The notes: a model not told the origin generated them from the sequence alone. A stretch of DNA of 39,355 nt from Atribacterota bacterium (GCA_038203565.1 JBBRDV010000007.1:1-39355), one strand, 5' to 3'; shown: positions 436-27,561, counted from the stretch's first letter. Translations and numbers: made by a program.

Positions 436-440
436 GTTAT

Positions 441-481
441 AAAAGTTAACCAAAGGTGCCAGGCACCTTTGGTTAACTTTT
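441..481. repeat. 41-bp palindromic REP-like element, copy 1 (centre A)
   Basis: AAAAGTTAACCAAAGGTGCC-A-GGCACCTTTGGTTAACTTTT, perfect 20-bp arms. Confidence 0.97.
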
Positions 482-510
482 TGGCAAGTTTGATTTGAAA
501 GAGGGGAGTT

Positions 511-521
511 TGTGGTATAAT
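511..521 (+). promoter_or_regulatory. Extended -10 sigma70-type promoter for psuK-psuG
   Basis: TGTGG-TATAAT at 511-521; TTGAAA at 495-500 gives only a 15-nt spacer. Confidence 0.55.
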
Positions 522-559
522 GAAAAAAATATTATCGGTTTTAGAGCAGGTTTTTTAAA

Positions 560-1643
560 ATGGTAATAACCAGAACAAGAGAGGAAGTTTTAAGTTCTCC
601 GAGATTGAGTGATAGCCGAGGGAGATTTGACGGAGTAGTGGTGATAGGTGGAGCAAATATTGATTTGAGAGGTAGACCTGCTGGGGAGGTGCTGGAAAGA
701 CATACCTCCAACCCGGGTAAGATAAATGTTGGTTCAGGAGGAGTAGGAAGGAATATTGCCCATAATCTGGCATTGCTTAATGTGCCGGTTACTTTATTGA
801 GTGCGGTAGGAGATGATGGAGAAGGAATAAGAATTTTGGAGGAGCGGGAAGGCCGGAGTTAATATGGAGCAGATGATCATATCTGGAGAGCATCCAACCG
901 GAATTTATCTGGCTATATTAGACGAGAAAGGCGAGATGGAGGTAGCGGTCTCGGATATGCAGATACTAGAGGAGATTACGGTGGAGTATCTGAGGTCAAA
1001 GGCTTATTTGATTAGAGAGAGCAAGATAGTGGTGATGGATACTAATATCCCTGAGCAGAGTATCGAATATGTGGTGGACTTGTGCAATAAGGTTAAGGTG
1101 CCTATTTTAGTGGAGCCGGTTTCGGTAGAGAAGGCAAGGAAGTTAAGAAAGGTACTGGATGGAAGCGGAAAATGGAATATTGATTATATAACTCCGAGTG
1201 AGGATGAGTTGGAATCAATCTTAGAGGTGGAGATGAGTGACCATCAGGATATGGGCTTAGTGAGGGCAGCAGAGGAATTGAAACGCAGAGGAGTTAAGAA
1301 GGTAATTGTCACTTTAGGAAAAAGAGGAATATATGTCTATTATGGAGGTGGTGGTGGTTCAAATGAGAGAGGACAGGATGAACCGAGTAAGTTTATGGCG
1401 CCCTATAAAGGAAAGGTAGTGGATGTAACTGGGGCTGGAGATGCGCTGGTGGCTGGTTTAGTTTACGGGATTTATAAAGGGTATCTTTTGAAGGTGGCCG
1501 CGAAATTTGGCTTGAGGGCTGCGGCTCTAACTATTTCAACAAAAGAAACCGTAAGAAGAGATTTAAGAGAAGGGTTATTGAGAAGCAGGATAGAAGAGGA
1601 GAAAGAAGAAGGAGAAGCAGGAAAGAGAGGAAGGTTATTATAA
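560..1643 (+). pseudogene. psuK: PfkB-family pseudouridine kinase, frameshifted near 845
   Basis: ORF 560-862 carries N-terminal PfkB motifs (IGGANID, GGVGRNIA, SAVGDD). ORF 864-1643 carries DVTGAGDA. The frames join as RILEE/GKAGVNMEQ. Adjacent to psuG. Confidence 0.8.
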
Positions 1644-1650
1644 ATTAATT

Positions 1651-2589
1651 ATGAGTATAAGTGCGAGTACAAGTGTGAATGGAGAAAGATTTTTTGATTT
1701 TAAAGATGAAGTAAGAGAGGCTTTAGAAGAAGGTAAGCCGGTGGTGGCTTTAGAATCAACTTTAATATCTCATGGATTTCCTTATCCGGAAAATTTAGAG
1801 GTGGCAGAGGAAATGGAAGAGATTATACGAGGATATGGAGTTATACCTGCTACCATTGCTATAATTGAGGGGAAGATAAAGATAGGATTGACAAGAGGCG
1901 AATTGGAATTTATGGCAACTTCTAAAGATATTTTAAAAGCCAGTAGGCGAGATTTAACAGTGATAGTAGCAAAAGGTTTAAATGGGGCTACTACGGTAGC
2001 GGCAACTATGATAATAGCAGAGAGGGTTGGAATAAAAGTCTTTGCCACCGGCGGCATAGGGGGAGTACATCGGGGAGCAGAAAAAACTTTTGATATATCG
2101 GCGGATTTGCAGGAATTAGCACGAACACCGGTAGTTGTAGTGTGCAGCGGGGCAAAGGCGATACTTAATTTGCCTTTAACTAAGGAATATCTGGAGACTA
2201 TGGGTGTACCGGTGATCGGATTTGGGAGTGAAGAGCTGCCTGCTTTTTATTGTCGGGAAAGCGGATTAAAGGTTGATTATGTGGTAAATGATGAGGTGGA
2301 GGCGGCGAAGATAATAAGAGCTATGGAGGATTTAAAATTAGGAGGGGGAATGATAATTGCTAATCCTGTTCCTGAGGAATACGCCATTTCAATGGAGTAT
2401 ATGAATGAAAAGATAGAAGAGGCTGTTAGGGCGGCAGAGAAGGAATGGGTCAAAAGAAAGAAGCTAACTCCTTATTTATTGAACAAGATAAAAGAATTAA
2501 CCGGTGGTAAAAGCCTGAAAGCTAATATTGCGCTGGTAAAAAATAATGCTCGGGTAGCCGCAAAAATCGCTTGTGAACTGATAAAATGA
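1651..2589 (+). CDS. psuG: Pseudouridine-5'-phosphate glycosidase
   Basis: Motifs PVVALEST, GATTVAAT, FATGGIGGVHRG, DISADL, SLKANIALV. Confidence 0.93.
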   Translation: MSISASTSVNGERFFDFKDEVREALEEGKPVVALESTLISHGFPYPENLEVAEEMEEIIRGYGVIPATIAIIEGKIKIGLTRGELEFMATSKDILKASRRDLTVIVAKGLNGATTVAATMIIAERVGIKVFATGGIGGVHRGAEKTFDISADLQELARTPVVVVCSGAKAILNLPLTKEYLETMGVPVIGFGSEELPAFYCRESGLKVDYVVNDEVEAAKIIRAMEDLKLGGGMIIANPVPEEYAISMEYMNEKIEEAVRAAEKEWVKRKKLTPYLLNKIKELTGGKSLKANIALVKNNARVAAKIACELIK

Positions 2590-2590
2590 A

Positions 2591-2631
2591 AAAAGTTAAC
2601 CAAAGGTGCCTGGCACCTTTGGTTAACTTTT
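2591..2631. repeat. 41-bp palindromic REP-like element, copy 2 (centre T)
   Basis: Consensus copy immediately after the psuG TGA stop. Confidence 0.97.
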
Positions 2632-2732
2632 TTAAAAGAAAAGTGCCAGGATCTGAAATTTAAGTAGAAATGTATATTTAGTATAAAGCATATATTAATA
2701 TATAATAAAATAGAGGAATTTGGAGGATTTAT

Positions 2733-3866
2733 ATGGAAATAGTTATTGTCGGTGCAGGTCCAGCAGGATGCTATACGGCCCAATTGTTGAAGAAATATGG
2801 TTTTAAAACCAGGATAATTGAAGAGCATCGAGAAGTGGGAAAGCCAGTTAGGTGTGCCGGGCTTGTAGGAAGACAAGTTTTTGAAAATACCCTGCTTCCT
2901 CTATCTGAAAGCTCTATTATTAATCAAATTAATGGAGCCTTAGTTTGCTATAGAGATGATAATTTTCAAATCAAGAGAGAAGGTGTAGCTTATGTAATTG
3001 ATCGTGAGAAGTTTGATAAAAATTTAAGCCAAGGCTTGGAGGTAGAATACGGAAAGAAGTTAATAGAGATAAATAAGGAAGGGTCTGGTTATATACTTAA
3101 GACTGATCTTGGGGATATTTACGCCGATTTAGTGGTTGGAGCTGACGGAGCAAATTCCCGGGTGAGAAAATATATAAATTTCGTGGATAATGATTATGCA
3201 AATGATAAAAAAAGAGGTTATATAAAATGCTATTTAGGAGTTCAATATAGAATAAAAGTAGAAGAGAATTTGCTTTGTAGTAAAATCACTCAGGTGCATT
3301 TCCGAGAAGGTATTCCTTTTTTTATTTGGGTTATCCCTGAGGGTAATAATGTTTTCCGTGTGGGAGTTGTTTCGGAAAATGCTCGTGAAGATTTAATAGG
3401 ATTTTTACGAGATTTCAAAATTAAAGGAAAAATTATCGGAAAATTAGCCGGAATGATTCCTGTAGGGTTAAGTAGAAACTATTATAAGAATATTGCCTTG
3501 GTGGGAGATGCGGCTGTTCAAGTAAAGCCTTTAACCGGCGGCGGGATATATTATGGATTAAAATCGGCAGAGCTTTTAGCAGAATGCATTAGAGATAATA
3601 GGCTGGATGAATACGATAGACGGTTGAAGAAGAAATATGGGAGAGAAATTAAATTTGGGTTAAAAGCTCGAAAATTATATGAAGAGATAAACGAAAAAGA
3701 ATTAAAGAACATATTTATGCTGTTTAAGAAAAATGCTGGAATTATTGAGAGAGCCGCTAATTTTGAAAACCATTCTGCGATTTTTATAGAAATTTTAAAA
3801 AGTCCTAAAATATTTAGAGATGCCAGACAGATTTTAAGCCGAAATATTAGGAAATTATTGTTTTAA
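2733..3866 (+). CDS. Geranylgeranyl reductase-family FAD-dependent oxidoreductase
   Basis: GAGPAG Rossmann motif, VGKPVRCAG, IDREKFD, GADGANS, WVIP, VGDAA-QVKPLTGGGIYYG; RBS GGAGG. Confidence 0.88.
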   Translation: MEIVIVGAGPAGCYTAQLLKKYGFKTRIIEEHREVGKPVRCAGLVGRQVFENTLLPLSESSIINQINGALVCYRDDNFQIKREGVAYVIDREKFDKNLSQGLEVEYGKKLIEINKEGSGYILKTDLGDIYADLVVGADGANSRVRKYINFVDNDYANDKKRGYIKCYLGVQYRIKVEENLLCSKITQVHFREGIPFFIWVIPEGNNVFRVGVVSENAREDLIGFLRDFKIKGKIIGKLAGMIPVGLSRNYYKNIALVGDAAVQVKPLTGGGIYYGLKSAELLAECIRDNRLDEYDRRLKKKYGREIKFGLKARKLYEEINEKELKNIFMLFKKNAGIIERAANFENHSAIFIEILKSPKIFRDARQILSRNIRKLLF

Positions 3867-3882
3867 AATAGGAGGAACTAAA

Positions 3883-4950
3883 TTGAAATCAATTATTCTT
3901 TGTGCCGGGAAAGGCACTCGCCTTAGGCCGCTAACTCATACGAGCGCCAAACATTTAATTCCCATTGCTAATAAACCGGTATTATTTTATGCAATAGATG
4001 CAATTAAGGATTGTGGAATAAAAGATATTGGCATAATCATTGGAGAGACCGGAGAGGACATAAAGAGTGAGCTTCAAGAAGGTAGTAAGTGGGGAGTGAA
4101 CATTTCTTACATCGAACAGAAGGAAGCCCTGGGTTTAGCGCATGCTGTATCAGTGGCGCGGGATTTTTTGGGAGAAGATAAATTTTTAATGTATTTAGGG
4201 GATAACCTGCTGAAGAACGGGGTAGAAAATTATGCCAATAAATTTATTGAAGGAAATTATAATGCCTTTATGTTGTTGACTGAAGTGGATAATCCCAGAC
4301 AATTTGGCGTTGCTGAGCTGGAAGGAGGGAGAGTTGTACGGGTAGTGGAAAAACCTAAAGAGCCGGTCAGTAATTTAGCTTTAATAGGAGTCTATTTTTT
4401 TGATAAAAATGTTTATCAGGCTATCAAAAATATAAAACCTTCAGGTCGGGGAGAATTAGAGATTACCGATGCGATTCAATGGATGATTGATAAGGGTTAT
4501 AAAGTGGGAGCTGAAGTAATTAAGGGTTGGTGGAAAGATACAGGTAAGCCGGATGATATTTTAGAAGCCAATCGCTTGATTTTAGAGGATATTGAGAGGG
4601 ATGTTAGTGGGGCGAAAGTGGATGAGAAGTCTGAGATTTTAGGAAGGGTAAAAATCGGAAAAGGGTCAGAGATTATAAATTCTAATATAGTAGGTCCGGT
4701 AATAATAGGAGAAGGGGTCAGAGTGGTCGATTCTTATGTGGGTCCCTTTACTTCCCTTTCAGATAGAGTGGAAATAAGAAAGAGTGAAATTGAATGCAGT
4801 GTAGTTTTAGAAGAGAGTAAACTGGAATTTATAAAGGGACGAATGCAAAGGTGCCTTATCGGAAGAGGCGTGGAAATTTATCATTCTAAAGACCTCCCCC
4901 GAATATACGAATTTATCTTAGGCGACCACAGCAAAATCGGCTTATTATAG
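3883..4950 (+). CDS. rfbA: Glucose-1-phosphate thymidylyltransferase, long form (TTG start)
   Basis: ILCAGKGTRLRPLT, KHLIPIANKP, GLAHAV, YLGDN, RGELEITD, WKDTG, plus C-terminal left-handed beta-helix repeats. Confidence 0.88.
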   Translation: MKSIILCAGKGTRLRPLTHTSAKHLIPIANKPVLFYAIDAIKDCGIKDIGIIIGETGEDIKSELQEGSKWGVNISYIEQKEALGLAHAVSVARDFLGEDKFLMYLGDNLLKNGVENYANKFIEGNYNAFMLLTEVDNPRQFGVAELEGGRVVRVVEKPKEPVSNLALIGVYFFDKNVYQAIKNIKPSGRGELEITDAIQWMIDKGYKVGAEVIKGWWKDTGKPDDILEANRLILEDIERDVSGAKVDEKSEILGRVKIGKGSEIINSNIVGPVIIGEGVRVVDSYVGPFTSLSDRVEIRKSEIECSVVLEESKLEFIKGRMQRCLIGRGVEIYHSKDLPRIYEFILGDHSKIGLL

Positions 4951-4964
4951 AGATAATAGAGATA

Positions 4965-5005
4965 AAAAGTTAACCAAAGGTGCCTGGCACCTTTGGTTAA
5001 CTTTT
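4965..5005. repeat. 41-bp palindromic REP-like element, copy 3 (centre T)
   Basis: Consensus copy between convergent genes; overlaps the minus-strand TAA stop at 5005-5007. Confidence 0.97.
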
Positions 5006-8000
5006 TAGAAGGAAGTGCCTAAAGTGATGTAGATATCATATCCTTTGGGATCGGTCAGGGCTTTGGCTGCCCCTAATCTTAGGGTAAAGGGAGCGTCGTA
5101 TTGGTAATTAAAATCTGCTTTTAGTTCTACTCCAATACTTGATTTGAAATTCTGCCAGATAGAATTAATTTCATCTTCTTCATTGGTTATATTTAGGCTG
5201 GCGCTTTCCCAGGCATTTCCAATATCGATAAAGAAGGCACCGGAAAGTCTTTCTAAAAAGATGGAGAGGGGTCCAAGTTTAGAGCCGTGCTCGATGTTGG
5301 CCAGGGGGAAGCGATATTCCAAGCTGGCTAAGATAAGATTGTTCCCTTCGAGGGCGGCAGGTTTATAACCCCGTAGAGAGAAGGTATTTACCTCAGTATC
5401 ACTAAGATTATCCGCGGAATAATTACCTCCCAATTTAAATTTCTCTCCATCTAAATCTGATTCTAATATGCTTGAAGAGCTGGTGCCGGCTACCAAGCGA
5501 AGTGCTAGAACCTGATGTGAGGAGGGGATCGGCAGTGGAATAAATTTTCTACCATCAAAGATTAATTTATCAAAAGTATAATCACCACCTAAGGTTTTAT
5601 CGGCATGTTCATAGGTCAAAGAGAAGGAGGTACCTATTTCGGGGCTGATAGAGAATCCATATTTTTCCGCATCAGAATAGGAGTAGCCTAATTTTAGACT
5701 GGTGATTTTTTGCGGGTTGGCATTTAAGAGAGATGACGCATTGAATGTGGCAGAAGAGAACTTTTCATATTGATACCCGAGAGAAAAGATCTGCCTGTAA
5801 GGACGAGAATTTGTGGTGGAAGCAGTCTGTCCTTTAAATGGGAAATAAATATTTATGCCGGTTTCCCCTTCTTCCCACCAGGAGATCGGGGAGTTTAAAA
5901 CAGCATTTCCAGACAGATAAAGATTAATAATAGGAAGGTAGCTATAATTATAATAATTGAAGTTGTAAGATAGGCTATTATTGAATATCCCATAAGTTAC
6001 GCTTAAGGGCAGGGAATAAAATCCCAGTACATCTTCCAATTTAGTTGAAAAGCCAATTCCCAGATCGCTTTCAGTAAGCCGGGCAGCGGGAATCCAGTAG
6101 GTGGGCGGCCAGAAGGAGGTTAAAGGATGGTAAGGTTGGATCGGGTAATTATTTTTAGAATTAGAATTAGAATTAGAATTAGAAGAGGTATTTAGGTTTT
6201 TATTGAATTGTTGTTCTGCCATAATTGGGGGTTCCATATATTCTATTTTTATTTCTTTCCACTGGTTGTGGTTTGAGTTCGGGTCCATCCCTTTCATGAG
6301 GTGCAGCTCGTATCCGGTGGCGTGATAGGAAATAAAGGCTAGCCGGGTACCATCGGGAGAGATGGCGGGCTGAAATGCCCCACCCAGGACATTGGTAACC
6401 TGATAGAGTTTTTTATCGAGGAACGAAAAGGCAAAAATATTATAAATACCGGTACGGTCTGAGGTGAAGAAGAGATATTGGCCATCGGGAGACCAACAAG
6501 GGCTAAGGTCAGTAGATTTGTCTTGAAAGATGGGCTGAAGAGTAAAATTACCGATATTACTGGGGTTAAGATTATTAGTGCTAAGATTGTCGGGATCAAG
6601 ATTTAAGATATGTATATCCTGATAACCCTGGCGCCAAGCAGAAAAGGCTATCTTGTCCCCTTTGGGAGACCAGGATGGTTGGTATAATTGGGTTCCATCT
6701 CGAAAGTCTGTTAGATAGACCATGTCTTCTTTGGTAATTAGCTTATAGGTGGGCTGGGCTTCATGAATCGATGAGTTTGGGGAATGTAAATTAATTAGAG
6801 CTAAATTATTTGTTCCTGATTGATTAATTACTGCCACGATTTGAGGATTTTCCGGGTCAGGTGACCAGCTGGGATCGCGAGCCCGCAGCCCTTCGGAAAG
6901 GCGGGTCTCTTTTTCTGTTTTTAAGTCGAATAAATAAAGGTCATAAAAATTATAAAATTGTTCATAGTCGTCTAATTTAGCATAAATTATTTTAGAACCG
7001 TCCGCAGAGAGACTAAAAGAAGAATCTCGGCCATAAGTTCTTCTAATTAAAAGTTCGTTTTTAGTAGAACGGGGAGTTGAGGGAAGAGAAGGGCTAAAAG
7101 GGTCGATAATTTGAATAAAGGGATAGGAATGAGGTGTAGAAACTCTGAATGCTATTTTATCTCCTTCGGGGGTGGAAAGCCAGTGGGGATAATCGACCCA
7201 ATAATGGTATTCAGTTAATTGCTGAGAAGGAGTAAGATTTTTTTGAGAGAGAATTTTTTGCGCCTGGAGTTGATATTTTTCTTTTAAATTTTCTTTCCAG
7301 CTTTGATATAGTTTCTCCAGGTTTAGGCCTGTCGCCCTTTTTACGGCATAGTTAAATCCTAAATAGGGATATTCACAGAATATTTCACTCATGGCAATAA
7401 TTTTATCTTCCCCGTATTTTTGAGCTATAAAATGGACAAGGGATTGGCCATAGATATAGGGTGCAGTGCCGTCAGGCCAGGAAGTAAGATAATAACCGTT
7501 TATCTGATCTAAAGTGTTAAACTGGTCTTCCAGAGCCGCCATGCGAAGATACATATCATAACGAGCATCTACCCCCCGGCCTCCGGCGGTAAATTTAGTT
7601 TCATTGTAAACTGCTAGTCCTTCGGTTGACCAGATGGGTTGGAGGGCATTGGGAGTGAGTATCTGACCAAATAGGGCGTGCAGGGCAGTGGTGAGCCCAG
7701 AGGTCATCTCGAAATGAGCCAGGTGGGTGTATTCGTGAGTGATTACCATTTTAAGCCAACTTTTAAATTTCATATCAAAGGATTTAGCTGTGGGGGCAGT
7801 TAGGGAAAGGCGAATCACACGATGAGGAAAAGAAGAGGCAAAACCCAGGGCGTAATCAGAAAAATCTTCCATAATTATGGCTACCTTTTGCAGGTGGTGA
7901 TGCTTGTTGGGCGAGCCAAGCTGAGCATTAACCTGATGGTAGGTTTCCTCAGCAATATCAGCTACTTCTTTAGCTAATTGTTCATTATTGTAACTGAAAT

Positions 8001-8184
8001 TTTCGTCATTTTGTTCATTGTTTTGTAATTTAGAAAAATAGACTGAAAAATGAGGGCTTTCCAAGACTTGCCAATTCAAGACGGGGTCATAGCGAGCAGC
8101 TTCCACACTCATAACTAATGGCGAGTATATTACTAAAACTATCATAATAATCATATAAATAAAAAAAGTTATTTTTTTTTGCAC
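5005..8184 (-). CDS. Omp85/BamA-TamA-family outer membrane protein with N-terminal HExxH peptidase-like domain and PD40/TolB-like beta-propeller
   Basis: Signal peptide from GTG at 8184; HEYTH...EGLA; repeated PSWSPD-type motifs; barrel motifs LRGY, EYRFPL, FIDIGNAW; C-terminal F. The ORF-track start at 8229 lies inside a repeat. Confidence 0.8.
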   Translation of the reverse strand: MQKKITFFIYMIIMIVLVIYSPLVMSVEAARYDPVLNWQVLESPHFSVYFSKLQNNEQNDENFSYNNEQLAKEVADIAEETYHQVNAQLGSPNKHHHLQKVAIIMEDFSDYALGFASSFPHRVIRLSLTAPTAKSFDMKFKSWLKMVITHEYTHLAHFEMTSGLTTALHALFGQILTPNALQPIWSTEGLAVYNETKFTAGGRGVDARYDMYLRMAALEDQFNTLDQINGYYLTSWPDGTAPYIYGQSLVHFIAQKYGEDKIIAMSEIFCEYPYLGFNYAVKRATGLNLEKLYQSWKENLKEKYQLQAQKILSQKNLTPSQQLTEYHYWVDYPHWLSTPEGDKIAFRVSTPHSYPFIQIIDPFSPSLPSTPRSTKNELLIRRTYGRDSSFSLSADGSKIIYAKLDDYEQFYNFYDLYLFDLKTEKETRLSEGLRARDPSWSPDPENPQIVAVINQSGTNNLALINLHSPNSSIHEAQPTYKLITKEDMVYLTDFRDGTQLYQPSWSPKGDKIAFSAWRQGYQDIHILNLDPDNLSTNNLNPSNIGNFTLQPIFQDKSTDLSPCWSPDGQYLFFTSDRTGIYNIFAFSFLDKKLYQVTNVLGGAFQPAISPDGTRLAFISYHATGYELHLMKGMDPNSNHNQWKEIKIEYMEPPIMAEQQFNKNLNTSSNSNSNSNSKNNYPIQPYHPLTSFWPPTYWIPAARLTESDLGIGFSTKLEDVLGFYSLPLSVTYGIFNNSLSYNFNYYNYSYLPIINLYLSGNAVLNSPISWWEEGETGINIYFPFKGQTASTTNSRPYRQIFSLGYQYEKFSSATFNASSLLNANPQKITSLKLGYSYSDAEKYGFSISPEIGTSFSLTYEHADKTLGGDYTFDKLIFDGRKFIPLPIPSSHQVLALRLVAGTSSSSILESDLDGEKFKLGGNYSADNLSDTEVNTFSLRGYKPAALEGNNLILASLEYRFPLANIEHGSKLGPLSIFLERLSGAFFIDIGNAWESASLNITNEEDEINSIWQNFKSSIGVELKADFNYQYDAPFTLRLGAAKALTDPKGYDIYITLGTSF
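6155..6184. repeat. (TTAGAA)5 microsatellite encoding a Ser-Asn linker
   Basis: Five exact hexamers within the Omp85-like gene, between propeller and barrel. Confidence 0.9.
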
Positions 8185-8203
8185 GTTCTCATACTTCTTC
8201 CCA

Positions 8204-8244
8204 AAAAGTTTCCCAAAGGTGCCTGGCACCTTCGGGAAACTTTT
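8204..8244. repeat. REP-like element, copy 4 (variant with compensatory arm changes)
   Basis: AAAAGTTTCCCAAAGGTGCC-T-GGCACCTTCGGGAAACTTTT; abuts the transposase stop codon. Confidence 0.93.
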
Positions 8245-9120: not shown

Positions 9121-9129
9121 AATGTGATT

Positions 9130-9158
9130 ATTATATCTTTTATAAATAAATAGTTCAA
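9130..9158 (-). promoter_or_regulatory. Sigma70-type promoter of the transposase
   Basis: Minus strand TTGAAC-17 nt-TATAAT, 9 nt upstream of ATG 9120. Confidence 0.75.
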
Positions 9159-9182
9159 GGGATCTTGGCATAAAAGCTGCTT

Positions 9183-9223
9183 AAAAGTTAACCAAAGGTG
9201 CCAGGCACCTTTGGTTAACTTTT
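9183..9223. repeat. 41-bp palindromic REP-like element, copy 5 (centre A)
   Basis: Consensus copy upstream of the transposase, between divergent promoters. Confidence 0.97.
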
Positions 9224-9238
9224 TTAAATAAAATTTTG

Positions 9239-9268
9239 TTGAAGTTTTAGAAAGAAATAGTATATAAT
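9239..9268 (+). promoter_or_regulatory. Putative sigma70 promoter for amidohydrolase
   Basis: TTGAAG-18 nt-TATAAT. Confidence 0.5.
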
Positions 9269-9315
9269 TGGTTCTAGTTGCATATTTCGGATATTCCAAA
9301 GGAAAGTTGGAGAGA

Positions 9316-10452: not shown

Positions 10453-10610
10453 AATGAATAAAATAAAAAGATGAAATAAGTCAGAGCCAGAGGTATTCCA
10501 TTTTCATATTATTATTTATTAGTAAAATACCAATTAAATGATACTAAAAGCAAGTCTTAACTACCTTGTAACGAATCGAAAAATATTCGAAGAAAGGAAC
10601 GTATTAAGAG

Positions 10611-12935: not shown

Positions 12936-12945
12936 TCTTATAAAT

Positions 12946-12986
12946 AAAAGTTAACCAAAGGTGCCTGGCACCTTTGGTTAACTTTT
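12946..12986. repeat. 41-bp palindromic REP-like element, copy 6 (centre T)
   Basis: Consensus copy 10 nt after the lipoprotein stop. Confidence 0.97.
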
Positions 12987-13011
12987 AATGCAAAATTTGT
13001 TATTTTTGTAC

Positions 13012-13040
13012 TTGCTTGAATTAAGGTTGTGTGGTATGTT
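13012..13040 (+). promoter_or_regulatory. Putative sigma70 promoter for pgi/pmi operon
   Basis: TTGCTT-17 nt-TATGTT with TG extension. Confidence 0.45.
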
Positions 13041-13083
13041 ATAAAATATAGAATGATAGGCATAAATTTGGGAGGAATGAGCT

Positions 13084-14220
13084 ATGAGAGAGACAAAAAA
13101 AAACAAAAAGGGTAATATAGATATATTAGATGGAGATTTTTCTAAACTGGATAAGGCTAACATGATAGAGCTTTTAGAAGAATTTCCGCAGAAGATGAGA
13201 GATGCCTTGCTTTTAGGAGAGGAATTTATTATTCCTACCAACCTTTTACCCAATCATGCCACTACCACCACAGCCACTGCCAATGTCCCTGCCCAGAATT
13301 TTAAAAATATTGTGGTATTGGGAATGGGTGGTTCAGCCATTGGCGGGGACCTATTATCTGATTATTTAGCCGATGAATTATCAATTCCTATAGTAGTCAT
13401 TCGCGGCTATGATATACCCAAATTTGTAGATAAAAATTCTTTAGTTTTTACCATCAGTTATTCGGGAAATACTGAAGAAACTATCTCTACCTTGAAGAAA
13501 TGCTTGGAAGCCAAAGCCAGAATCATTGCTTTAACTTCAGGGGGTAAATTAGCGGTCCTTTCCCAAGAGAATAACTTTCCTGTGATTAAAGTACCAGGAG
13601 GAATCCAGCCTCGAGCCGCCATTTCTTATCTGTTCTTTCCTATATTAAAAGCTTTAGAAAGGCTTGGTTTGATAAAGGAAAGAAGCAGCGAGATAGAAGA
13701 AACAATCAGCATTTTACAAGACCTTTCTAGGGAATATTGTGCTAAATCTGCCAGTAAAAACAATTTAGCCAAGAAGGTAGCCTTGAGTCTGTATCAGCAT
13801 CTGCCCCTGATTTACGGTTCTGAAGGATTGTTAGAGGCAGTGGCAATGCGTTGGAAGACTCAGATAAACGAAAATAGTAAATGGCCCTGTTTTTGGAATA
13901 TATTTCCTGAACTCGACCATAACGAAATAGTGGGCTATGAAATAGAAAATAACATAAACCGACAGGTCAAAATTATTTATCTTCAAGACAAAGAAGGGCT
14001 TTTGAGAGTGGAGCAGAGACGGAAAATTACTCGCAAGATTATCCAAGGCAAAGTAGCCGAGTTTATGGTTTGCCCTACCAAAGGTAAAGGAAAAATGTCA
14101 CGCATGTTTTCACTAATTTTCTTAGGTGACCTGGCAAGCTATTATTTAGCAATATTAAATCAGGTTGACCCTTCACCAGTAGCCTGTATAGAAGATCTAA
14201 AGAAAGAATTAGCCAAGTAA
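13084..14220 (+). CDS. Bifunctional phosphoglucose/phosphomannose isomerase (SIS family)
   Basis: GMGGSAIGGD, SYSGNTEET, TSGGKL, QPRAA, RWKTQINENSK, PELDHNEIVG. Confidence 0.92.
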   Translation: MRETKKNKKGNIDILDGDFSKLDKANMIELLEEFPQKMRDALLLGEEFIIPTNLLPNHATTTTATANVPAQNFKNIVVLGMGGSAIGGDLLSDYLADELSIPIVVIRGYDIPKFVDKNSLVFTISYSGNTEETISTLKKCLEAKARIIALTSGGKLAVLSQENNFPVIKVPGGIQPRAAISYLFFPILKALERLGLIKERSSEIEETISILQDLSREYCAKSASKNNLAKKVALSLYQHLPLIYGSEGLLEAVAMRWKTQINENSKWPCFWNIFPELDHNEIVGYEIENNINRQVKIIYLQDKEGLLRVEQRRKITRKIIQGKVAEFMVCPTKGKGKMSRMFSLIFLGDLASYYLAILNQVDPSPVACIEDLKKELAK

Positions 14221-14233
14221 ATTAATTATTTGC

Positions 14234-14306
14234 GAATTAATGAATTAATTAAATTGATCAATTGGCCAGGTAGAGGATAAGTCAATTGGCGAATTGATGA
14301 ATTAAT
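14234..14306. repeat. Degenerate 8-nt-period AATT array
   Basis: Units GAATTAAT, AAATTGAT, CAATTGGC, GAATTGAT etc. in two blocks. Confidence 0.65.
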
Positions 14307-14324
14307 AAACAGGAGAACATTTAT

Positions 14325-15248
14325 TTGAAATACATTGAAGTTGGAGTTATTGCCTTTATAGTCTCGCATATTTTAACTCCCTATATGGCGCGTGTAGGGA
14401 AAAAACAAAATATGATGGACATGCCCGGTCATCGTAAAATACACGAGGAAGCTATCCCCAATTTGGGCGGGATAGTTATTTTTTTTGGATTTTTACTGAG
14501 TCTGCTCTTTGTGGTGCAGATAGAAGGACAGATTAAAGCCCTCTTGATAGGCGGGGTAATCATATTGTTATTAGGGGTGGTAGATGACATAGTAGATCTT
14601 TCTCCCAAGTATAAATTCATTATTCAAATGGTTCCTGCCTTAATAGTAATTCTATATAACAGTGATTTAATAAATAGTTTTATAGTTAATCAATTAAAAA
14701 TTTTTGATCTGTTAGGTTATCTTCTTTATCCTATTTTAATCTTCTGGATAGTGGGAGTAACTAATTCCATTAATTTGATAGACGGTTTAGACGGGCTGGC
14801 TTGTGGAATTTCCCTTATGGCCTTAGTAACTTTTCTTATTTTAGGCTTAAGGCAAAATTTAGAGGCTCTCAGTCTTATATCTATTGCCCTGGCGGGGAGC
14901 ATGTTAGCTTTTTTGAGATTTAATTTTTACCCGGCTAAAATCTTTCTGGGAGATTCCGGCAGTACCTTTGCCGGTTTCATGTTAGCCTCTATAGGGACTT
15001 TGTGGGTATTAAACAGTGGGAATGCTTTTTTTATTTTAATTCCTATTATTATTCTGGCTCTACCTATTGTTGATACCCTGTTTGCTATCTGCAGGAGATA
15101 CCGGGGGCATTATCCTATATTCCAGGCCGATAAAGGGCATCTCCACCATCGACTTTTAACTAGGGGGATAGCACATAAGAATGTGGTGTTTATCTTATGG
15201 GGAATAAGCGCCATCTGTAGCGTAATTGCCCTTGTTTTAGCATTCTAA
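14325..15248 (+). CDS. Undecaprenyl-phosphate GlcNAc-1-phosphate transferase (WecA/TagO, MraY family; TTG start)
   Basis: RKIH...PNLGG, GVVDD, NSINLIDGLDGLA, FLGDSGS, DKGHLHHRL. Confidence 0.92.
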   Translation: MKYIEVGVIAFIVSHILTPYMARVGKKQNMMDMPGHRKIHEEAIPNLGGIVIFFGFLLSLLFVVQIEGQIKALLIGGVIILLLGVVDDIVDLSPKYKFIIQMVPALIVILYNSDLINSFIVNQLKIFDLLGYLLYPILIFWIVGVTNSINLIDGLDGLACGISLMALVTFLILGLRQNLEALSLISIALAGSMLAFLRFNFYPAKIFLGDSGSTFAGFMLASIGTLWVLNSGNAFFILIPIIILALPIVDTLFAICRRYRGHYPIFQADKGHLHHRLLTRGIAHKNVVFILWGISAICSVIALVLAF

Positions 15249-15252
15249 TGTA

Positions 15253-15293
15253 AAAAGTTAACCAAAAGTGCCTGGCACTTTTGGTTAACTTTT
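15253..15293. repeat. REP-like element, copy 7 (perfect palindrome with compensatory G>A / C>T)
   Basis: AAAAGTTAACCAAAAGTGCC-T-GGCACTTTTGGTTAACTTTT. Confidence 0.96.
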
Positions 15294-15315
15294 TGTAGTA
15301 GAAAGGAAAAGAAAC

Positions 15316-16389
15316 ATGAAATTAGAAAAGAGAAAGGGACAAGTAAGTGAAAATAAAAAGACCACCGTTTTAGTTACCGGCGGGGCGGGCTTTATCGGTT
15401 CACACATTGTGGATTTACTCATCAAAAATAATTATAAAGTTGTAATAGTTGATGATTTATCTTCTGGCCGAGAGGAGAATATCAACAAAAATGCCCGATT
15501 TTATAAATTAAACATCACCAACCAAAAAGGGTTAGCTGAAGTGTTTAAGAAGGAAAAACCTGATTATGTATGCCATGAAGCCGCCCAGATTAGTGTTTCT
15601 TTTTCTGTAAGAGACCCTTTATTTGATGCTCAAACCAATATCCTTGGTTCCTTGAATTTATTACAATACTGTGTTAATTACCAGGTTAGGGGAATAGTTT
15701 TTGCCTCCAGCGGTGGGACTATTTATGGAGAACCAGAGCATTTCCCCATCAGTGAGGATTACCCTTTTAAGCCTCAATCGCCTTATGGAATTAGTAAGGC
15801 TGCTATCGAGTATTATCTTGATTTTTATCAGAAAAATTACCATATCCCATATGTAGCACTAAGATATGGAAATGTCTATGGACCCCGACAGGACCCTTAT
15901 GGTGAAGCCGGTGTTATTGCTATATTTATAGAAAAGATGCTAAAAGGAGAAATTCCTACTATAAATGGTGACGGAGAATATATCAGAGATTATATTTATG
16001 TAGAAGATGTGGCCCAAGCTAATTTACTTGCCCTTCAAAATATGGTAAAATTATCTGAGGTTGTTCGGGAAATAGAAAAAGCTAAAGAAAAAGAAAAAGA
16101 AACCGAAACTAAAAATAAAACTAAACCTGAACCTGAACCTGAAATTGAACTTAATGGCTTCAATCTGGGAACCGAAAGAGGAATTTCGGTAAATGAAATA
16201 TTTTGTCTTTTAAAGGAGATTATAAAATTCCCTCATCCGGCGCATTATGGGCCTCCCAGAGTAGGGGATTTAAGGAAAAATATTCTGGATTGCCACTTGA
16301 TTAAAGATGTTTTAGGGTGGCAGCCACAGTTTGACTTTTCAGCTGGTTTAGAAAAGACAGTTCGCTGGTTTAAAGAGAATATTCACTAA
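15316..16389 (+). CDS. NAD-dependent epimerase/dehydratase (UDP-glucose 4-epimerase-like)
   Basis: TGGAGFIGSH, SSGGTIYG, YGISK, RYGNVYGPRQ; carries a charged low-complexity insertion. Confidence 0.9.
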   Translation: MKLEKRKGQVSENKKTTVLVTGGAGFIGSHIVDLLIKNNYKVVIVDDLSSGREENINKNARFYKLNITNQKGLAEVFKKEKPDYVCHEAAQISVSFSVRDPLFDAQTNILGSLNLLQYCVNYQVRGIVFASSGGTIYGEPEHFPISEDYPFKPQSPYGISKAAIEYYLDFYQKNYHIPYVALRYGNVYGPRQDPYGEAGVIAIFIEKMLKGEIPTINGDGEYIRDYIYVEDVAQANLLALQNMVKLSEVVREIEKAKEKEKETETKNKTKPEPEPEIELNGFNLGTERGISVNEIFCLLKEIIKFPHPAHYGPPRVGDLRKNILDCHLIKDVLGWQPQFDFSAGLEKTVRWFKENIH

Positions 16390-16571
16390 TTATTTTAATT
16401 TTAGAAATTTATCCTAAAAAGAAGGAATTTAGGATGTTTTTGTCGTATTAGTATAATTGGATTACCCAGAAAAAAGGTTAAAAACAGCAAAAACCGAAAG
16501 ATAAGTCAAAAATAAGGATAAAAAAGTAATAAATGAAATAATAATGAAATAATAGAGGAAAATAAATTTAT

Positions 16572-18254
16572 ATGCTTGAAACCGGAATAGTCTTTAAAAT
16601 TGCAGGTATCGTTATATGTAGTGTGCTGATGGTCATCTTAGGGAAGGTAGACAGAAAGAGAGAGATTCCCACAGGGGTTAAATTAATATTTCAAGTTTTA
16701 ATTTCTTTAATTATAATTTATTCTGGAGTTAAAATAGAATTTTTGCGAGCTCCTTCCTCTTCATCGGGAGGGTATCTTTATCTTAGCTATTTGTCTATCC
16801 CCCTAACCATAATCTGGCTGATAAGCATTACTAACTCTATCGGTCAGGCAGATAAACTGGGAGACATCACTCCCTATATTGTCTTTATCGCTTCCCTCAC
16901 TTTTTTAGTGGTCTCTCTGGTCCAGAGACAGGGATTAATTTTAGCAGAATCACTATCTTTGATTATGGCGGCGACTTCATTTATTTTTATTAAATATGTC
17001 CCCCGAAGTAAATTTTCTTCCTATTATATGTCTTTTGGATTTATATTAGCAGTGATTGCTATTGTGGGTGTATCCAAAAGTACAGCAGCTTTAACTTTAT
17101 TGATTCCACTTTTAATTTTAGGTGTACCGATTATAGACAGCTCTTATTCTATTGTAGCTAATTATGCCCGTCAGGAAAGCTCAATCCCGGGTATAGGAGG
17201 AAAATTACCATTATTTTCAGAGAGCGGGAGCGGAAGCAAGTTATGCCAGAAACTCCAATCTTATGGATTTTCGGCTCAAGGAGCGAATTTAACTATTATC
17301 AGGGTCTCACTCTACTTAAGCATATCAGCTTTTATTATTTCTATATACCAGAATTTTTATCTACTGTTAACCCTGACTGCTTTTGGCTGGGTGGTTTTTG
17401 AATTGCTGAAGAATAAGGTTCAGTCAGAGGAATTAATTATCGGAAGAGATATTCTAAATAGCCGCATAAAACTCTTTCAAGTGGGAATTGACCAGGTGGA
17501 TAATCAAAAAACTATTCAAAAAATAGAGGAATTTATTATATCTAAAAAACCTCATCAGATTGTTACTCCGGATACTTTGGCTGTATTGCGAGCAAGAAAA
17601 GACCCTGAGTATCACGCCATATTAAAATCTGCAGATTTGGTTACCCCTGATGGGGCAGGTATTTTATGGGCTGCCACAACTCTAAATTATCCTTTACCTG
17701 AAAGGGTAACCGGTATAGACATAATACATAACATATGCCGATTGGCTGCCAAGAAGGGGTATTCTTTATATTTATTAGGCTCTTATCCTGAGGTGGCTAG
17801 TGAGACTGCCTTAAATTTAACCAAGAAATATCCGGGAATAAAGATAGCTGGAACCCATCACGGTTATTTTAGTTGTGAAGATTCTCAAAATTGTGAAGAT
17901 GTTAAAAATGGTAATAGCGTTAGGGATAAAAAAGAAGAAGAGATTATTGACGAGATAAAAGAAAATAAACCGGATATATTGCTGGTGGGTATGGGTGTGC
18001 CCAAACAAGAAAAGTGGATTAATAAAAATTTAGAGAAATTAGATGTACCAGTATGTATAGGAGTAGGCGGAAGTTTCGACGTCCTTTCCGGCAGAATACC
18101 GCGAGCACCATTATGGATGCAAAGACACGGAATGGAATGGATTTATAGATCAATTAAGCAGCCAAACAGGGCTTTCCGAGTTTTAGCCCTTTTTTATTTT
18201 ATCTGGTTGGTAATTGTAGGGAAAATAGTTTATTCTCTAAAAGAAGTAGAATAA
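16572..18254 (+). CDS. Fusion of a degenerate MraY/TagO-like membrane domain and a WecB/TagA/CpsF glycosyltransferase
   Basis: N-half is multi-TM with WLISITNSI and LGVPIID; C-half has ADLVTPDGAG, ERVTGID, HHGYF, VGMGVPKQE, GVGGSFD, RAP.WMQ..GMEW.YR. Confidence 0.85.
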   Translation: MLETGIVFKIAGIVICSVLMVILGKVDRKREIPTGVKLIFQVLISLIIIYSGVKIEFLRAPSSSSGGYLYLSYLSIPLTIIWLISITNSIGQADKLGDITPYIVFIASLTFLVVSLVQRQGLILAESLSLIMAATSFIFIKYVPRSKFSSYYMSFGFILAVIAIVGVSKSTAALTLLIPLLILGVPIIDSSYSIVANYARQESSIPGIGGKLPLFSESGSGSKLCQKLQSYGFSAQGANLTIIRVSLYLSISAFIISIYQNFYLLLTLTAFGWVVFELLKNKVQSEELIIGRDILNSRIKLFQVGIDQVDNQKTIQKIEEFIISKKPHQIVTPDTLAVLRARKDPEYHAILKSADLVTPDGAGILWAATTLNYPLPERVTGIDIIHNICRLAAKKGYSLYLLGSYPEVASETALNLTKKYPGIKIAGTHHGYFSCEDSQNCEDVKNGNSVRDKKEEEIIDEIKENKPDILLVGMGVPKQEKWINKNLEKLDVPVCIGVGGSFDVLSGRIPRAPLWMQRHGMEWIYRSIKQPNRAFRVLALFYFIWLVIVGKIVYSLKEVE

Positions 18255-18554
18255 TAATCGATAATAGATAATACTTAATAAGTGAATGATAATTAATTGA
18301 GATAACCCAAAAATAATAGAAACATAGAATAGTAATTAATTTAGTATCTTAGTATAGATGCATTATCTTAATGGCTCTTGATGGCTATAGATATATAGAA
18401 TTATAATATTACCGATCTTTCTATTTGCTTATTTCTAAAGCCTTAAATGTTAAGATAGTTAAATTCCCCTCAATAGATCGAAAGACAAGTATCACCCTTT
18501 ATTTTATATCAATATCCGTTTTTCTAATTAATCAATTAAATAAGGAGATAGCTG

Positions 18555-19043
18555 ATGAAAATTTTGCTTAAAGGTGCAATAATTGTAGTTGCCTTAGTCA
18601 TTCAACTTACCCTTATTAATTCGGTTACCATTTTGGGATTGAAACCTGATTTGATAATGGTGGTAGTAGTAGTTTTTTCCTTGATGAAGGGAGAAAAAGA
18701 AGGGTCTATCTCTGGATTTGTTTCCGGCCTTTTGCAGGATATCTTTTCTACCAGCCTCTTAGGAATAAATGCTTTGGCAAAGACGGTGATAGGTTTTACC
18801 TGTGGAATTTTAAAAGAAAAAATATTTCATGAACATATATTATTTCTTATTCCGGTAATAACTTTTATTGCATCATTTTTACAAAGTATTTTAATTTTTT
18901 TGCTATTACGAGCTTTTGGAATCGAATATGGACTGGCCTGGAGCTTAAAACAGATAGCCCTTCCTGAGGCTTTATATAGTAGCCTGCTATCACCTCTTAT
19001 TTTTTTAGCAATAAATAAACTTTTTCAGATGATTAAAGAATAA
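18555..19043 (+). CDS. mreD: Rod shape-determining protein MreD
   Basis: Hydrophobic 162 aa, KPDL...GF.SGLLQD..S...GINAL; precedes PBP2. Confidence 0.9.
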   Translation: MKILLKGAIIVVALVIQLTLINSVTILGLKPDLIMVVVVVFSLMKGEKEGSISGFVSGLLQDIFSTSLLGINALAKTVIGFTCGILKEKIFHEHILFLIPVITFIASFLQSILIFLLLRAFGIEYGLAWSLKQIALPEALYSSLLSPLIFLAINKLFQMIKE

Positions 19044-19049
19044 AAATAA

Positions 19050-19090
19050 AAAAGTTAACCAAAGGTGCCTGGCACTTTTGGTTAACTTTT
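19050..19090. repeat. REP-like element, copy 8 (one G.T mismatch)
   Basis: AAAAGTTAACCAAAGGTGCC-T-GGCACTTTTGGTTAACTTTT between mreD and mrdA. Confidence 0.96.
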
Positions 19091-19113
19091 GCCATTAAAA
19101 TTGAGGAGTAATT

Positions 19114-20877
19114 ATGAGGGAATCTTCTACAGTTCCAGAAGATGTGAAACAACGGCTAAATTGGTTATTGATATTTATGGTCATCTGTTTTCTAATATTA
19201 GTTATCAGTTTATGGTATTTGCAGATGATTAAAGGAGAGGAATTTAAGGAAAGGGCGGTAGGGAATTGCATCCGTACTCTGGTAGAAGATGCCCCTCGGG
19301 GCAGGATTTATGATCGCCAGGAAGAATTATTGGTTACTAATCGTCCGGCAGTAGTAGTATCTATAATTCCGGCAGAGGTTGATGATTTAGAAAAACTGAG
19401 TGAAAGACTAAGTAAAATTATAGGTATTTCTCCGGAAGAAATTTCGCAGATAGTAAAAAATTACCGGGAAAATCCTTTTAAACCGGTAAAAATTTTGGAT
19501 GATTGTAACACAAATAAGACAGTGGAGATCGAGGAGAGAAAAGATGAATTAAAGGGAGTGGTATTAGAGGTTAAACCTCGGAGAGATTATCTTTACCATG
19601 ATTTTGCAGCTCATAGCTTAGGTTATGTGGGAGAAATAGATAAAGAAGAATTGCAGCGATTTGGCAATCCAAAATATCAGGGAGGAGACATCATAGGAAA
19701 AGCCGGGCTGGAGAAGTATTATGATGCTATTTTGAGAGGAGAAAAAGGAGGGAAGGAAGTCGAAGTTGATGCCTTGGGTCAGGAGATAGCTACTTTATTG
19801 TATCAGAAACCGGTTCCGGGCAAAGATTTGATATTAACTATTGATAGAGATTTACAGCTTTGCGGAGAAAATTTACTCTTTGATAAAAAAGGTTCTATTG
19901 TGGTAAGTGATCCTAACAGTGGGGAAATATTAGCTCTGGTTAATAGACCTTCTTTTAACCCCAACTTATTCGCTAATGGAATTTCCAGTTCTGATTGGCA
20001 AAGGCTTTCTTTTGATACCGATTACCCTTTGACTAACCGAAGTGTTCAGGGTCTTTATTCTCCTGGTTCGATATTTAAAGTAGTTACAGCGGCAGCTGCT
20101 CTGGAAGAAGGAGTTACTAATAGAAAAAGAAAGATTTATTGCTCGGGTACTTTTGAATTAGCTGGCCGGGTCTTCAACTGCTCGAAGGAGACCGGACACG
20201 GAAGTTTAAGTATTGTAGATGCAATTACTCATTCCTGTAATATCTATTTTTACACTTTAGGAAAAGACCTGGGGATTGAAAGATTTAATAAATATATGCA
20301 GAAATATGGATTGGGAGAAAAAACGGGTATTGATCTGCCCGCAGAAGCTATAGGGACAATTCCTTCTGCTCAATGGAAGGAGAGAGAAATTAAAGAGATT
20401 TGGTTTCCCGGTGATACTATAAATCTTTCTATCGGTCAGGGTTATCTTTTGTTAACACCTTTACTGGTGCATAGTCTTATTACTACTATCGCTGCAGAAG
20501 GAGAAGTTTACAAGTTGCATTTAGTAAAAAAGATAATTTCCGCCGATGGCAACACAGTAGAAGAAATTAAGCCGGAAATTCATAAAAAAGTAAACTTTTC
20601 TTCAGATACATTTAAAATTATTAAAGAGGGATTAAGACAGACCATATTAAAAGGAACGGGTTGGAGAGCAAATATTCAAGAATTAGCAGTAGCCGGGAAG
20701 ACCGGGACAGCTCAAAATCCTCAGGGGGAGACCCATGCCTGGTTTATCGGGTTCGCACCTTATGAGAATCCGGAAGTTTGCATTACCGTTTTTATAGAAA
20801 ATGGAGGAGAAGGGGGAGTAGCAGCTGCTCCCATAGCCCGAGCTATGCTGGAAAAATATTTTAATATTAAAAATTAA
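19114..20877 (+). CDS. mrdA: Penicillin-binding protein 2
   Basis: APRGRIYDR, PGSIFK (SxxK), SCN (SxN), KTGTAQ. Confidence 0.95.
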   Translation: MRESSTVPEDVKQRLNWLLIFMVICFLILVISLWYLQMIKGEEFKERAVGNCIRTLVEDAPRGRIYDRQEELLVTNRPAVVVSIIPAEVDDLEKLSERLSKIIGISPEEISQIVKNYRENPFKPVKILDDCNTNKTVEIEERKDELKGVVLEVKPRRDYLYHDFAAHSLGYVGEIDKEELQRFGNPKYQGGDIIGKAGLEKYYDAILRGEKGGKEVEVDALGQEIATLLYQKPVPGKDLILTIDRDLQLCGENLLFDKKGSIVVSDPNSGEILALVNRPSFNPNLFANGISSSDWQRLSFDTDYPLTNRSVQGLYSPGSIFKVVTAAAALEEGVTNRKRKIYCSGTFELAGRVFNCSKETGHGSLSIVDAITHSCNIYFYTLGKDLGIERFNKYMQKYGLGEKTGIDLPAEAIGTIPSAQWKEREIKEIWFPGDTINLSIGQGYLLLTPLLVHSLITTIAAEGEVYKLHLVKKIISADGNTVEEIKPEIHKKVNFSSDTFKIIKEGLRQTILKGTGWRANIQELAVAGKTGTAQNPQGETHAWFIGFAPYENPEVCITVFIENGGEGGVAAAPIARAMLEKYFNIKN

Positions 20878-20917
20878 AAAGTTAACCAAAGGTGCCTGGC
20901 ACCTTTGGTTAACTTTT
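20877..20917. repeat. 41-bp palindromic REP-like element, copy 9 (centre T)
   Basis: Consensus copy overlapping the mrdA TAA stop. Confidence 0.97.
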
Positions 20918-27538: not shown

Positions 27539-27561
27539 AGTATCATTAGGTAAAACAATAA

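Follow-up and report, generated by a model that had tools for sequence, protein, structure and literature searches.

The contig JBBRDV010000007.1 of the Atribacterota genome GCA_038203565.1 raises the question of whether a single tyrosine transposase-like gene can be tied to a set of hairpins unlike any canonical repetitive extragenic palindromic (REP) sequence. REP-associated tyrosine transposases (RAYTs, or TnpA-REP enzymes) adjoin their REPs, and canonical proteobacterial REPs are imperfect hairpins with a GTAG or GGAG foot, often paired as bacterial interspersed mosaic elements (BIMEs) or REPINs. Such systems are known mainly from Proteobacteria, with hundreds of GTAG-tagged copies, and the copying, replacing or maintaining of hairpins by RAYTs is still unsettled. 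The stretch analysed here (the window, 39,355 nt) is the entire contig, called C7 below, and carries nine 41-bp palindromes dispersed over 20.5 kb around a Y1/HUH gene (tnpA). Its host is an uncultured sediment bacterium whose assembly (G000; 1.97 Mb, 218 contigs) is 99% complete by marker genes. We consider that gene and palindromes probably form a REPtron/TIRtron-like system of one Atribacterota family, in which a single-copy, vertically inherited RAYT-like Y1/HUH gene with a C-terminal helix-turn-helix (HTH) tail is accompanied by hairpin palindromes of its own.

Eight palindromes in the window matched the consensus string of a first-pass annotation of this DNA (at most three mismatches; six exact, one with one mismatch and one with two), and 0 of 100 dinucleotide-preserving shuffles gave any match. 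The ninth (8204-8244) was recovered by a half-arm search and an inverted-repeat finder, with 95% complementarity. It departs from the consensus at five positions, four of them compensatory (TTAACC to TTTCCC, paired with GGTTAA to GGGAAA), giving a distal stem of GTTTCCC/GGGAAAC where the other copies have GTTAACC/GGTTAAC, plus one unpaired position. All nine palindromes lie at the places given by the first-pass annotation, and all are outside real genes and single, as it had said. Its consensus captured a real family, although the string is exact in six copies only, and its set of nine missed two further members in the window, one diverged (35609-35649) and one a decayed relic centred on 27580. 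The arms begin AAAAG, and neither GTAG nor GTGG occurs in the family hairpin; since the foot is missing and the palindromes are perfect, the label non-canonical is apt.

Folded as single strands, the copies form stems of 19-21 bp with a 3-nt loop. The DNA fold, given for copy 2591-2631, has an energy of -22.3 kcal/mol (z -10), and RNA folds of the window copies range from -25 to -30 kcal/mol. For eight of the nine copies a stop codon lies 0-14 nt before the start of the palindrome. An Rfam scan of the window at gathering thresholds matched no family. The invariant hairpin centre, CCWGG (e.g. the apex at 2609-2613), is the recognition sequence of Dcm/EcoRII-type methylation and restriction.

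As first annotated, two copies bracket the intact tnpA gene (8245-9120). The gene is encoded on the minus strand; one copy abuts its stop codon and the other sits 63 nt upstream of the ATG at 9120. The start of the 291-aa product was set at M18 from the ortholog alignment; the longer 308-aa open reading frame (ORF) begins upstream of the start common to the orthologs. Pfam Y1_Tnp matched the protein at 39.2 bits (cut-off 23), the HUH motif (H-F-H; H79 and H81) and the tyrosine Y138 (in SYINLNPV; Y121 of the 291-aa form) are invariant across 11 orthologs, and pairwise dN/dS values of 0.17-0.35 indicate purifying selection. In an AlphaFold2 model (mean pLDDT 80.5), the 150-aa C-terminal tail is helical. 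The top Foldseek match was 4ER8, the E. coli TnpA-REP protein with a bound REP hairpin (TM 0.73 on the target, E 6e-6), followed by the ISDra2, IS200 and IS608 transposases. A sequence profile search of the PDB gave weak matches (MntR HTH, E 0.03; 4ER8, E 0.11), so the fold search was needed to reveal the relationship to 4ER8. A nuclease role for the protein is predicted from this fold and the conserved residues.

The tail is probably an HTH, judging by homologous sequences and the structural model. In the window protein itself no Pfam HTH family was matched. In an alignment of 19 homologues, made up of 16 sequences of orthologue type and three paralogues from G000, weak matches were found to HTH_29 (11/19), HTH_7 (9/19) and HTH_23 (4/19; best E-value for this family 2.5e-5), and two G000 paralogs matched Bac_DnaA_C at 7.6e-8. 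The first-pass description of the transposase as HTH-bearing is therefore likely but short of proof, the signs of it being the weak matches in orthologs and the helical tail.

Orthologs were collected from Atribacterota metagenome-assembled genomes (MAGs), one genome per species, giving 17 orthologous loci of 59-91% identity. Family hairpins flank tnpA in all 17, on both sides in 15 and at a contig end in the other two, and the tnpA genes of G075 and G079 are likewise hairpin-flanked. Around the orthologs the apex GTGCC-W-GGCAC is invariant and the lower stem varies by lineage (GTTAACC, GTTTCCC, GTGTCCT, GTTGCCA, GGGAAAC, TGTAAAAAAA, GGTAAACTTTA, ATGACAAGTTTT and CATAGAAAGG). This variation preserves pairing: among 90 distinct copies, both partners have changed in 16 of the 21 stem pairs, pairing holds in 92.1% of cells, and the four apex pairs are the same throughout. 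The covariation score was 0.423, compared with 0.114 in shuffles (0/500 reach 0.423) and at most 0.153 with slid partners.

The hairpin core AAAGGTGCCNGGCACCTTT (at most two mismatches) was present in 27 of 29 other genomes of the host family (f1), at 0-21 matches per genome, compared with 2 of 56 genomes elsewhere in the phylum. Both outside matches are single and degenerate, and a reversed-pattern control also gave single matches in three outside genomes. Of the 30 family genomes (G000 counted), 21 have an ortholog with 54% identity or more; most of the nine others are incomplete. The G014 assembly is broken at the tnpA locus, and in G021 tnpA is deleted save for a 36-codon remnant beside a hairpin. 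The order Omp85-like gene, tnpA, amidohydrolase gene is the same in most of the 18 other genomes of the genus (g1) and in G020, G022 and G023. Each genome has one ortholog except G023, which has two divergent ones, one 89% identical to the window's and the other 61% (tblastn) or 65% (genome search). These two copies, at C9:1-1241 (L041) and C6:1940-2948 (L040), are each hairpin-flanked and may be two sides of one locus; the amidohydrolase gene was not seen between them.

G000 holds 17 close copies, of which over half sit in the 20.5-kb stretch of the window and eight are dispersed on seven other contigs; about half of the copies lie elsewhere in the genome, beside unrelated genes. Under a looser membership rule (apex with at most one mismatch and at least 15 of 22 pairs) there are 20 members, nine of them within the 20.5 kb around the gene, which make up 1.04% of the genome (binomial 2e-13). 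As the G000 assembly is fragmented, these counts are lower bounds. The 16-mer flanking tnpA occurs 21 times in G000, both strands counted. Similar clustering was seen elsewhere, with 11 of 21 copies in G002 on one 29.8 kb contig and seven of eight in G022 on one contig.

Contig C34 of G002 is syntenic with the window at 87-94% nucleotide identity, and all nine sites are filled there, with flanks aligned up to the A-run and the T-run. The stems differ: on C34 seven of nine are GTGTCCT and two GTTTCCC (sites 4965 and 9183), whereas eight of nine in the window are GTTAACC, and the centre base differs at five of the nine sites. The dispersed G000 sites (on C133, C6, C61, C42 and two on C53) are also filled in G001 and/or G002, often by another variant. 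Within the genus, seven sites were compared in 3, 8, 10, 10, 5, 11 and 11 genomes, and all 58 junctions carry a family hairpin or a recognisable remnant. Automatic flank comparison had flagged three apparent empty sites (G010 and G003 at site 15253, G011 at site 2591), which on inspection are lineage-specific variants. In three further genera (G022, G023 and G020; proteins 55-85% identical to the window's), tnpA occupies the same Omp85/amidohydrolase locus and hairpins stand at the same junctions as in the window; within the conserved block psuG ... Omp85 ... GT4, epimerase, mreD, PBP2, rodA, nearly every junction has one. Since each genome has its own stem variant at these conserved places, the copies have been replaced in place.

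Older copies are still recognisable at several sites. Decayed copies lie directly beside intact ones in G002, G014 and G018 at site 12946 and in G003 at site 15253. At site 19050, G012 carries copies in tandem, and where G002 has its counterpart of site 20877, the new copy is followed by an 11-nt remnant of a GGGAAAC arm. A contig from one public sequencing run (X7) has 10 extra letters past site 20877 that resemble an old right arm. Hybrid copies are also present, their left and right arms being of different types. The centre base was A in 46 and T in 44 of the 90 copies, and never G or C. As flank substitutions between close strains are mostly transitions and the centre is only A or T, this pattern fits orientation flips of a conserved base rather than point mutation. 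A link between the centre base and gene direction was considered and dropped: T follows plus-strand genes regularly in G000, G002 is opposite at five of nine sites and no rule holds elsewhere.

As far as genome comparison can reveal it, the visible process is replacement in place and not colonisation of new sites, because copy number is low, all 58 junctions are filled and the places are conserved over four genera. The first-pass annotation had the palindromes spread by the transposase, with filled and empty alleles as the comparison of interest; on the same three grounds, spreading is not what the comparisons bear out. Its tie between the repeat family and the Y1/HUH gene fared better, given the flanking of homologous tnpA genes at 17/17 loci, the confinement of the core to the family and the joint change of protein clade and stem type. 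A G002-only insertion (L074, compared with G000 contig C15) was set aside as a filled/empty pair; the hairpin there is accompanied by about 100 nt of another repeat, so the pair is not a clean one. Contigs assembled from four public runs (X2, X3, X6 and X7) over positions 2000-21000 of the window break at the palindromes, and so are uninformative on excision, variants and transcript ends; public RNA runs contain 8-12% of the sampled words.

Stem type also tracks the protein. Ortholog clades can be separated by the sequence of the putative recognition helix, and each clade has its own flanking stem type. The tnpA products of G003, G010 and G013 share 60-69% identity with that of the window, compared with 78-88% for neighbouring genes at the locus; for the remaining eight genomes of this comparison, similarity is about the same for tnpA as for the genes beside it. 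This lower conservation suggests that tnpA alleles were swapped, or diverged fast, at a fixed locus, with the flanking hairpin type changing along with them. The type flanking the gene matches that of the rest of the genome well in G001, G002, G007 and G017. The clade/stem-type match is suggestive only, because related genomes are not independent.

On the REPtron/TIRtron-like reading, and by analogy with E. coli TnpA-REP and the IS608 and ISDra2 TnpA proteins, the tnpA protein would bind the single-stranded hairpin via its invariant apex, cut and rejoin DNA via the conserved tyrosine, and copy hairpins beside or over existing ones, the older copies then decaying. Such copying would yield tandem copies, remnants, hybrid arms and central-base flips. 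As for the HTH tail, it could recognise the variable lower stem or else control tnpA through the upstream hairpin.

Several observations weigh against this reading. Deletion of tnpA in G021 has left nine core matches in that genome, and plain gene conversion, with no help from the protein, could make the copies uniform. Among the 58 within-genus junctions no site was empty, and no insertion turned up that is clearly recent, which leaves mobility to new places hypothetical; binding, cleavage and movement by the protein are predictions by analogy. The curated RAYT model NF047646 (NCBIfam REP_Tyr_transpos) matched at 60 bits, under its cut-off of 80 (E 2.4e-16, model positions 4-146). The hairpins are also unlike those of REPtrons: they lack the GT[AG]G foot and the bulge, they are perfect palindromes of 41 bp, centred on 1 nt and invariant at the apex, and in G000 all copies are single, with no REPIN doublets and no high copy number. 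The correspondence between protein and stem type has exceptions: stem types are mixed in G008, G010 and G012, the match of flank and genome is mixed in these and in G004, and the tnpA flanks are not always of the majority type (the left flank in G000 is GTTTCCC, and both flanks on contig C9 of G023 are GTTTCCC while GTTAACC dominates there). Finally, the MAGs are incomplete, which makes presence/absence counts soft, and related genomes are non-independent samples.

A more specific account, possible in our view but doubtful, is that the Y1-HTH protein is a domesticated hairpin-overwriting enzyme that keeps about 10-20 fixed junction hairpins per genome intact and uniform by copying the current master hairpin onto or next to older ones, with no scattering. 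The sites would then be concentrated in the conserved cell-envelope gene block around tnpA, and the HTH tail would read the lower stem, so that a tnpA allele swap at the fixed locus would re-write all sites. The hairpins would serve the host as operon-internal RNA 3′-end or attenuator elements. If true, this would be a low-copy natural system in which REP overwriting is traceable site by site.

The terminator-like position of the palindromes invites another explanation, which we judge improbable: that they are host intrinsic (bidirectional) terminators or mRNA 3′-end hairpins, kept by selection and homogenised by ordinary homologous gene conversion, with tnpA playing no part. The closeness of eight copies to a preceding stop codon, the long stem between an A-run and a T-run with its strong RNA fold, the filling of all 58 orthologous junctions at places conserved over genera and the persistence of hairpins in G021 all speak for terminators. 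A terminator scan flagged some copies only, because it counted the T-run as stem. Terminators, however, need neither an invariant 11-nt apex nor stems that are all alike; at these junctions G003 and G010 have variants with no T-run; and in likely operons (mreD/PBP2/rodA) hairpins stand 22-29 nt before the next start, leaving a promoter no space. The family is moreover confined to the clade of the gene, clustered near it and flanking it at 17/17 loci, and its type changes with the tnpA clade. Within the favoured REPtron/TIRtron-like reading, a lesser role is suggested for G000-type copies, which have the anatomy of bidirectional terminators (a G+C-containing stem, a T/U run and a position at gene 3′ ends): the 19-21 bp stem with an A-run and a U-run in transcripts makes them likely candidates for partial terminators or RNA 3′-end stabilisers inside operons, as has been proposed for REPs. 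Such a role is possible but not general, owing to the short distance to the next start and the T-run-less variants.

Less likely still is that the Y1-HTH protein has been domesticated as a binder of DNA or RNA hairpins that regulates the envelope-biogenesis cluster, the palindromes being its operators or attenuators and its nuclease chemistry not now being used for DNA copying. A single-copy gene at a fixed locus in most of the g1 genomes and three other genera, under purifying selection, with an HTH-like tail and with hairpins at nearly every junction of a conserved block, would suit a regulator. Against this, the invariance of the HUH motif and catalytic tyrosine points to nuclease chemistry that is still in use; no regulon could change 4+4 stem positions in parallel at about 10 sites unless a copying process were at work; and around half of the copies stand elsewhere in the genome beside unrelated genes. 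That the locus is an ordinary IS200/IS605-type insertion sequence, with the palindromes as its ends and solo copies as left-over ends or miniature elements of the PATE or MITE kind, is very improbable: the Y1_Tnp domain, the fold matches to IS608, ISDra2 and IS200 transposases, the bracketing hairpins and the other Y1 paralogs in the genome speak for it, but the genomes each have a single ortholog, in conserved synteny (G023 excepted), no tnpB among the tnpA neighbours, the same perfect palindrome left and right in place of distinct imperfect ends, and a 150-aa C-terminal extension unlike classical TnpA, with 4ER8 the better fold match.

The coordinates of the features are given in the table.

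Table. Family hairpins, tnpA-like gene and associated features in the window (C7, 39,355 nt).
Feature	Position	Strand	Remarks
Hairpin copy 1, GTTAACC type, centre A	441-481		9 nt past a separate terminator-like hairpin (400-432)
Hairpin copy 2, centre T	2591-2631		begins 1 nt past the stop of an IndA-like gene
Hairpin copy 3	4965-5005		between convergent NTP-transferase and Omp85-like genes
Hairpin copy 4, GTTTCCC variant, one unpaired position	8204-8244		abuts the tnpA stop codon
tnpA-like gene, 291 aa, Y1/HUH nuclease domain and helical C-terminal tail	8245-9120	-	Pfam, fold match, orthologs
Promoter-like site TTGAAC-17-TATAAT, between upstream hairpin and tnpA start	9130-9158	-	consensus match only
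Hairpin copy 5, centre A	9183-9223		63 nt upstream of the tnpA start
Hairpin copy 6	12946-12986		10 nt past a beta-helix protein gene
Hairpin copy 7, AAAAGTGCC/GGCACTTTT, compensated change	15253-15293		between GT4 and epimerase genes
Hairpin copy 8	19050-19090		between mreD and the PBP2 gene
Hairpin copy 9	20877-20917		overlaps the PBP2 stop codon; 29 nt before rodA
Decayed family relic, apex GTGTC-T-GGCAC, 14/22 pairs	27560-27600		L27/Obg junction; intact copy there in G022
Diverged family member GGTAACATTTTGTGCC-A-GGCACTAAATGTTAC	35609-35649		DUF3048/XerC-like junction; G022 copy there too

Other features of the window and genome were recorded alongside. A stretch of some 100 nt following a HepT gene (window 340-441, including the hairpin at 400-432) recurs at 77-80% identity at C19:10772-10874 of G000 and in several relatives. 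A PfkB-family kinase is split into adjacent ORFs in different frames (560-862 and 864-1643), which could reflect a frameshift, a pseudogene or an assembly error; it is probably a pseudouridine kinase that partners the IndA/PsuG-like gene (1651-2589). A 46-bp perfect palindrome (23903-23948; two 23-nt arms, no spacer) overlaps the stop of a radical-SAM gene; it has no relation to the hairpin family and no second copy in the genome.

Further Y1 paralogs exist in G000. Those at C131:849-1703 (L007) and on C11 (L009:910-1737) have a C-terminal HTH of the Bac_DnaA_C type, and no flanking hairpins were found beside them; the C11 paralog is truncated and lies next to an IS110-like gene. A second hairpin family, with TAGGGACACATCCCATTTT in its arms, occurs in G000 at C66:522-584, C51:1913-1981, C25:7330-7384 and C121:1701-1753, the first of these directly upstream of another Y1 paralog (223 aa, C66:622-1293, locus L006). 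The GGGACAC of this second family resembles the GGGGWSAS of TIRYT repeats. A third, small family with the core GGGCAGAC-loop-GTCTGCCC was found at C18:6161, C63:5797, C3:61163, C10:108 and C39:12339.

Among described systems, REPtrons (E. coli TnpA-REP/YafM with REP/BIME; 4ER8; PMC3479197, PMC6006769) share several properties with the Atribacterota system, going by the passages of these papers drawn on here: a single-copy Y1/HUH gene with its own hairpin on both sides, a repeat that also occupies extragenic space after genes, vertical inheritance and a repeat type that follows the protein clade. The best structural match of the tnpA protein is itself a REPtron enzyme, 4ER8. Besides the hairpin design, the differences from REPtrons lie in copy number (17-20, not hundreds), in arrangement, with nine copies clustered in 20.5 kb around the gene and REPIN doublets absent from G000, and in the protein, with its probable C-terminal HTH tail and its match to the NCBIfam RAYT model below cut-off.

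Another counterpart is found in the TIRtrons, described as RAYT-like genes with terminal inverted repeats (TIRs), some of them wholly self-complementary and some moderately abundant (Di Nocera et al. 2013, PMC3733652, with De Gregorio and Rocco as co-authors). In the portions of that paper cited here, TIRtrons/TIRYTs resemble our system in having a RAYT-like protein with an added C-terminal HTH-type domain, a probable one in our case, and flanking repeats that can be wholly self-complementary and moderately abundant (e.g. the repeats of S. maltophilia ORF 1152). They differ from it in their common TIR motif GGGGWSAS, which is absent from this hairpin family, and in host, here Atribacterota. 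Because TIRtrons were already described, the distinct REP class proposed by the first-pass annotation stands as a REP-like class linked to its gene, but is less new than claimed. In the relevant passages of a large survey (Quentin et al. 2018, PMC6006769), the TnpA-REP subclasses accompanied by canonical REPs, which carry a GT[AG]G foot, are 2.2, 2.4, 2.5, 2.7 and 2.8, TIRtrons/TIRYTs fall largely within TnpA-Y1 subclass 2.1, and for subclass 2.1 REP-like sequences were not found by automatic or manual search. Unlike subclass 2.1 as surveyed there, the hairpins here are obvious and family-wide, the likeness being one of description and not of phylogeny.

Similarly, the flanking 16-mers of Group 1 RAYTs occur about 12 times on average (Bertels, Gallie and Rainey 2017, PMC5581495, in the passages cited), a modest repetition like the 21 occurrences (both strands) found here; this likeness is by repeat count alone, and the present hairpin type is not described in those passages. 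A full-text literature search combining RAYT/REPIN with Atribacter returned no description of such a system in the phylum, the terms being co-mentioned in an unrelated subseafloor microbiology study.

Replacement in place, the most striking behaviour of the system, has a recent precedent. In the cited part of the REPORTH study (10.1101/2024.10.14.618302), REPINs in conserved extragenic spaces of Pseudomonas chlororaphis change with the predominant RAYT and "may be overwritten"; there, as here, the repeat keeps its place between the same genes while its type changes. In contrast to that case, as far as the cited part describes it, the Atribacterota comparison covers a whole bacterial family (four genera, proteins 55-85% identical) with about 10-20 sites per genome, and includes tandem old and new copies, hybrid arms and centre-base flips. 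With few copies, an invariant apex, a covarying stem and family-wide places, replacement, hybrid arms, remnants and flips can be read from genome comparison, and the apex and stem variants provide defined substrates for biochemistry. The hairpins would also give a clear partner to an HTH-bearing Y1 protein, a type reported without associated REPs in the large survey. Together, these comparisons describe a system that works like a REP/RAYT or TIRtron system yet fails the canonical REP features of foot, imperfect stem, high copy number and curated protein cut-off, and that would carry the REP/RAYT concept over to another hairpin design, in a phylum abundant in the subsurface.

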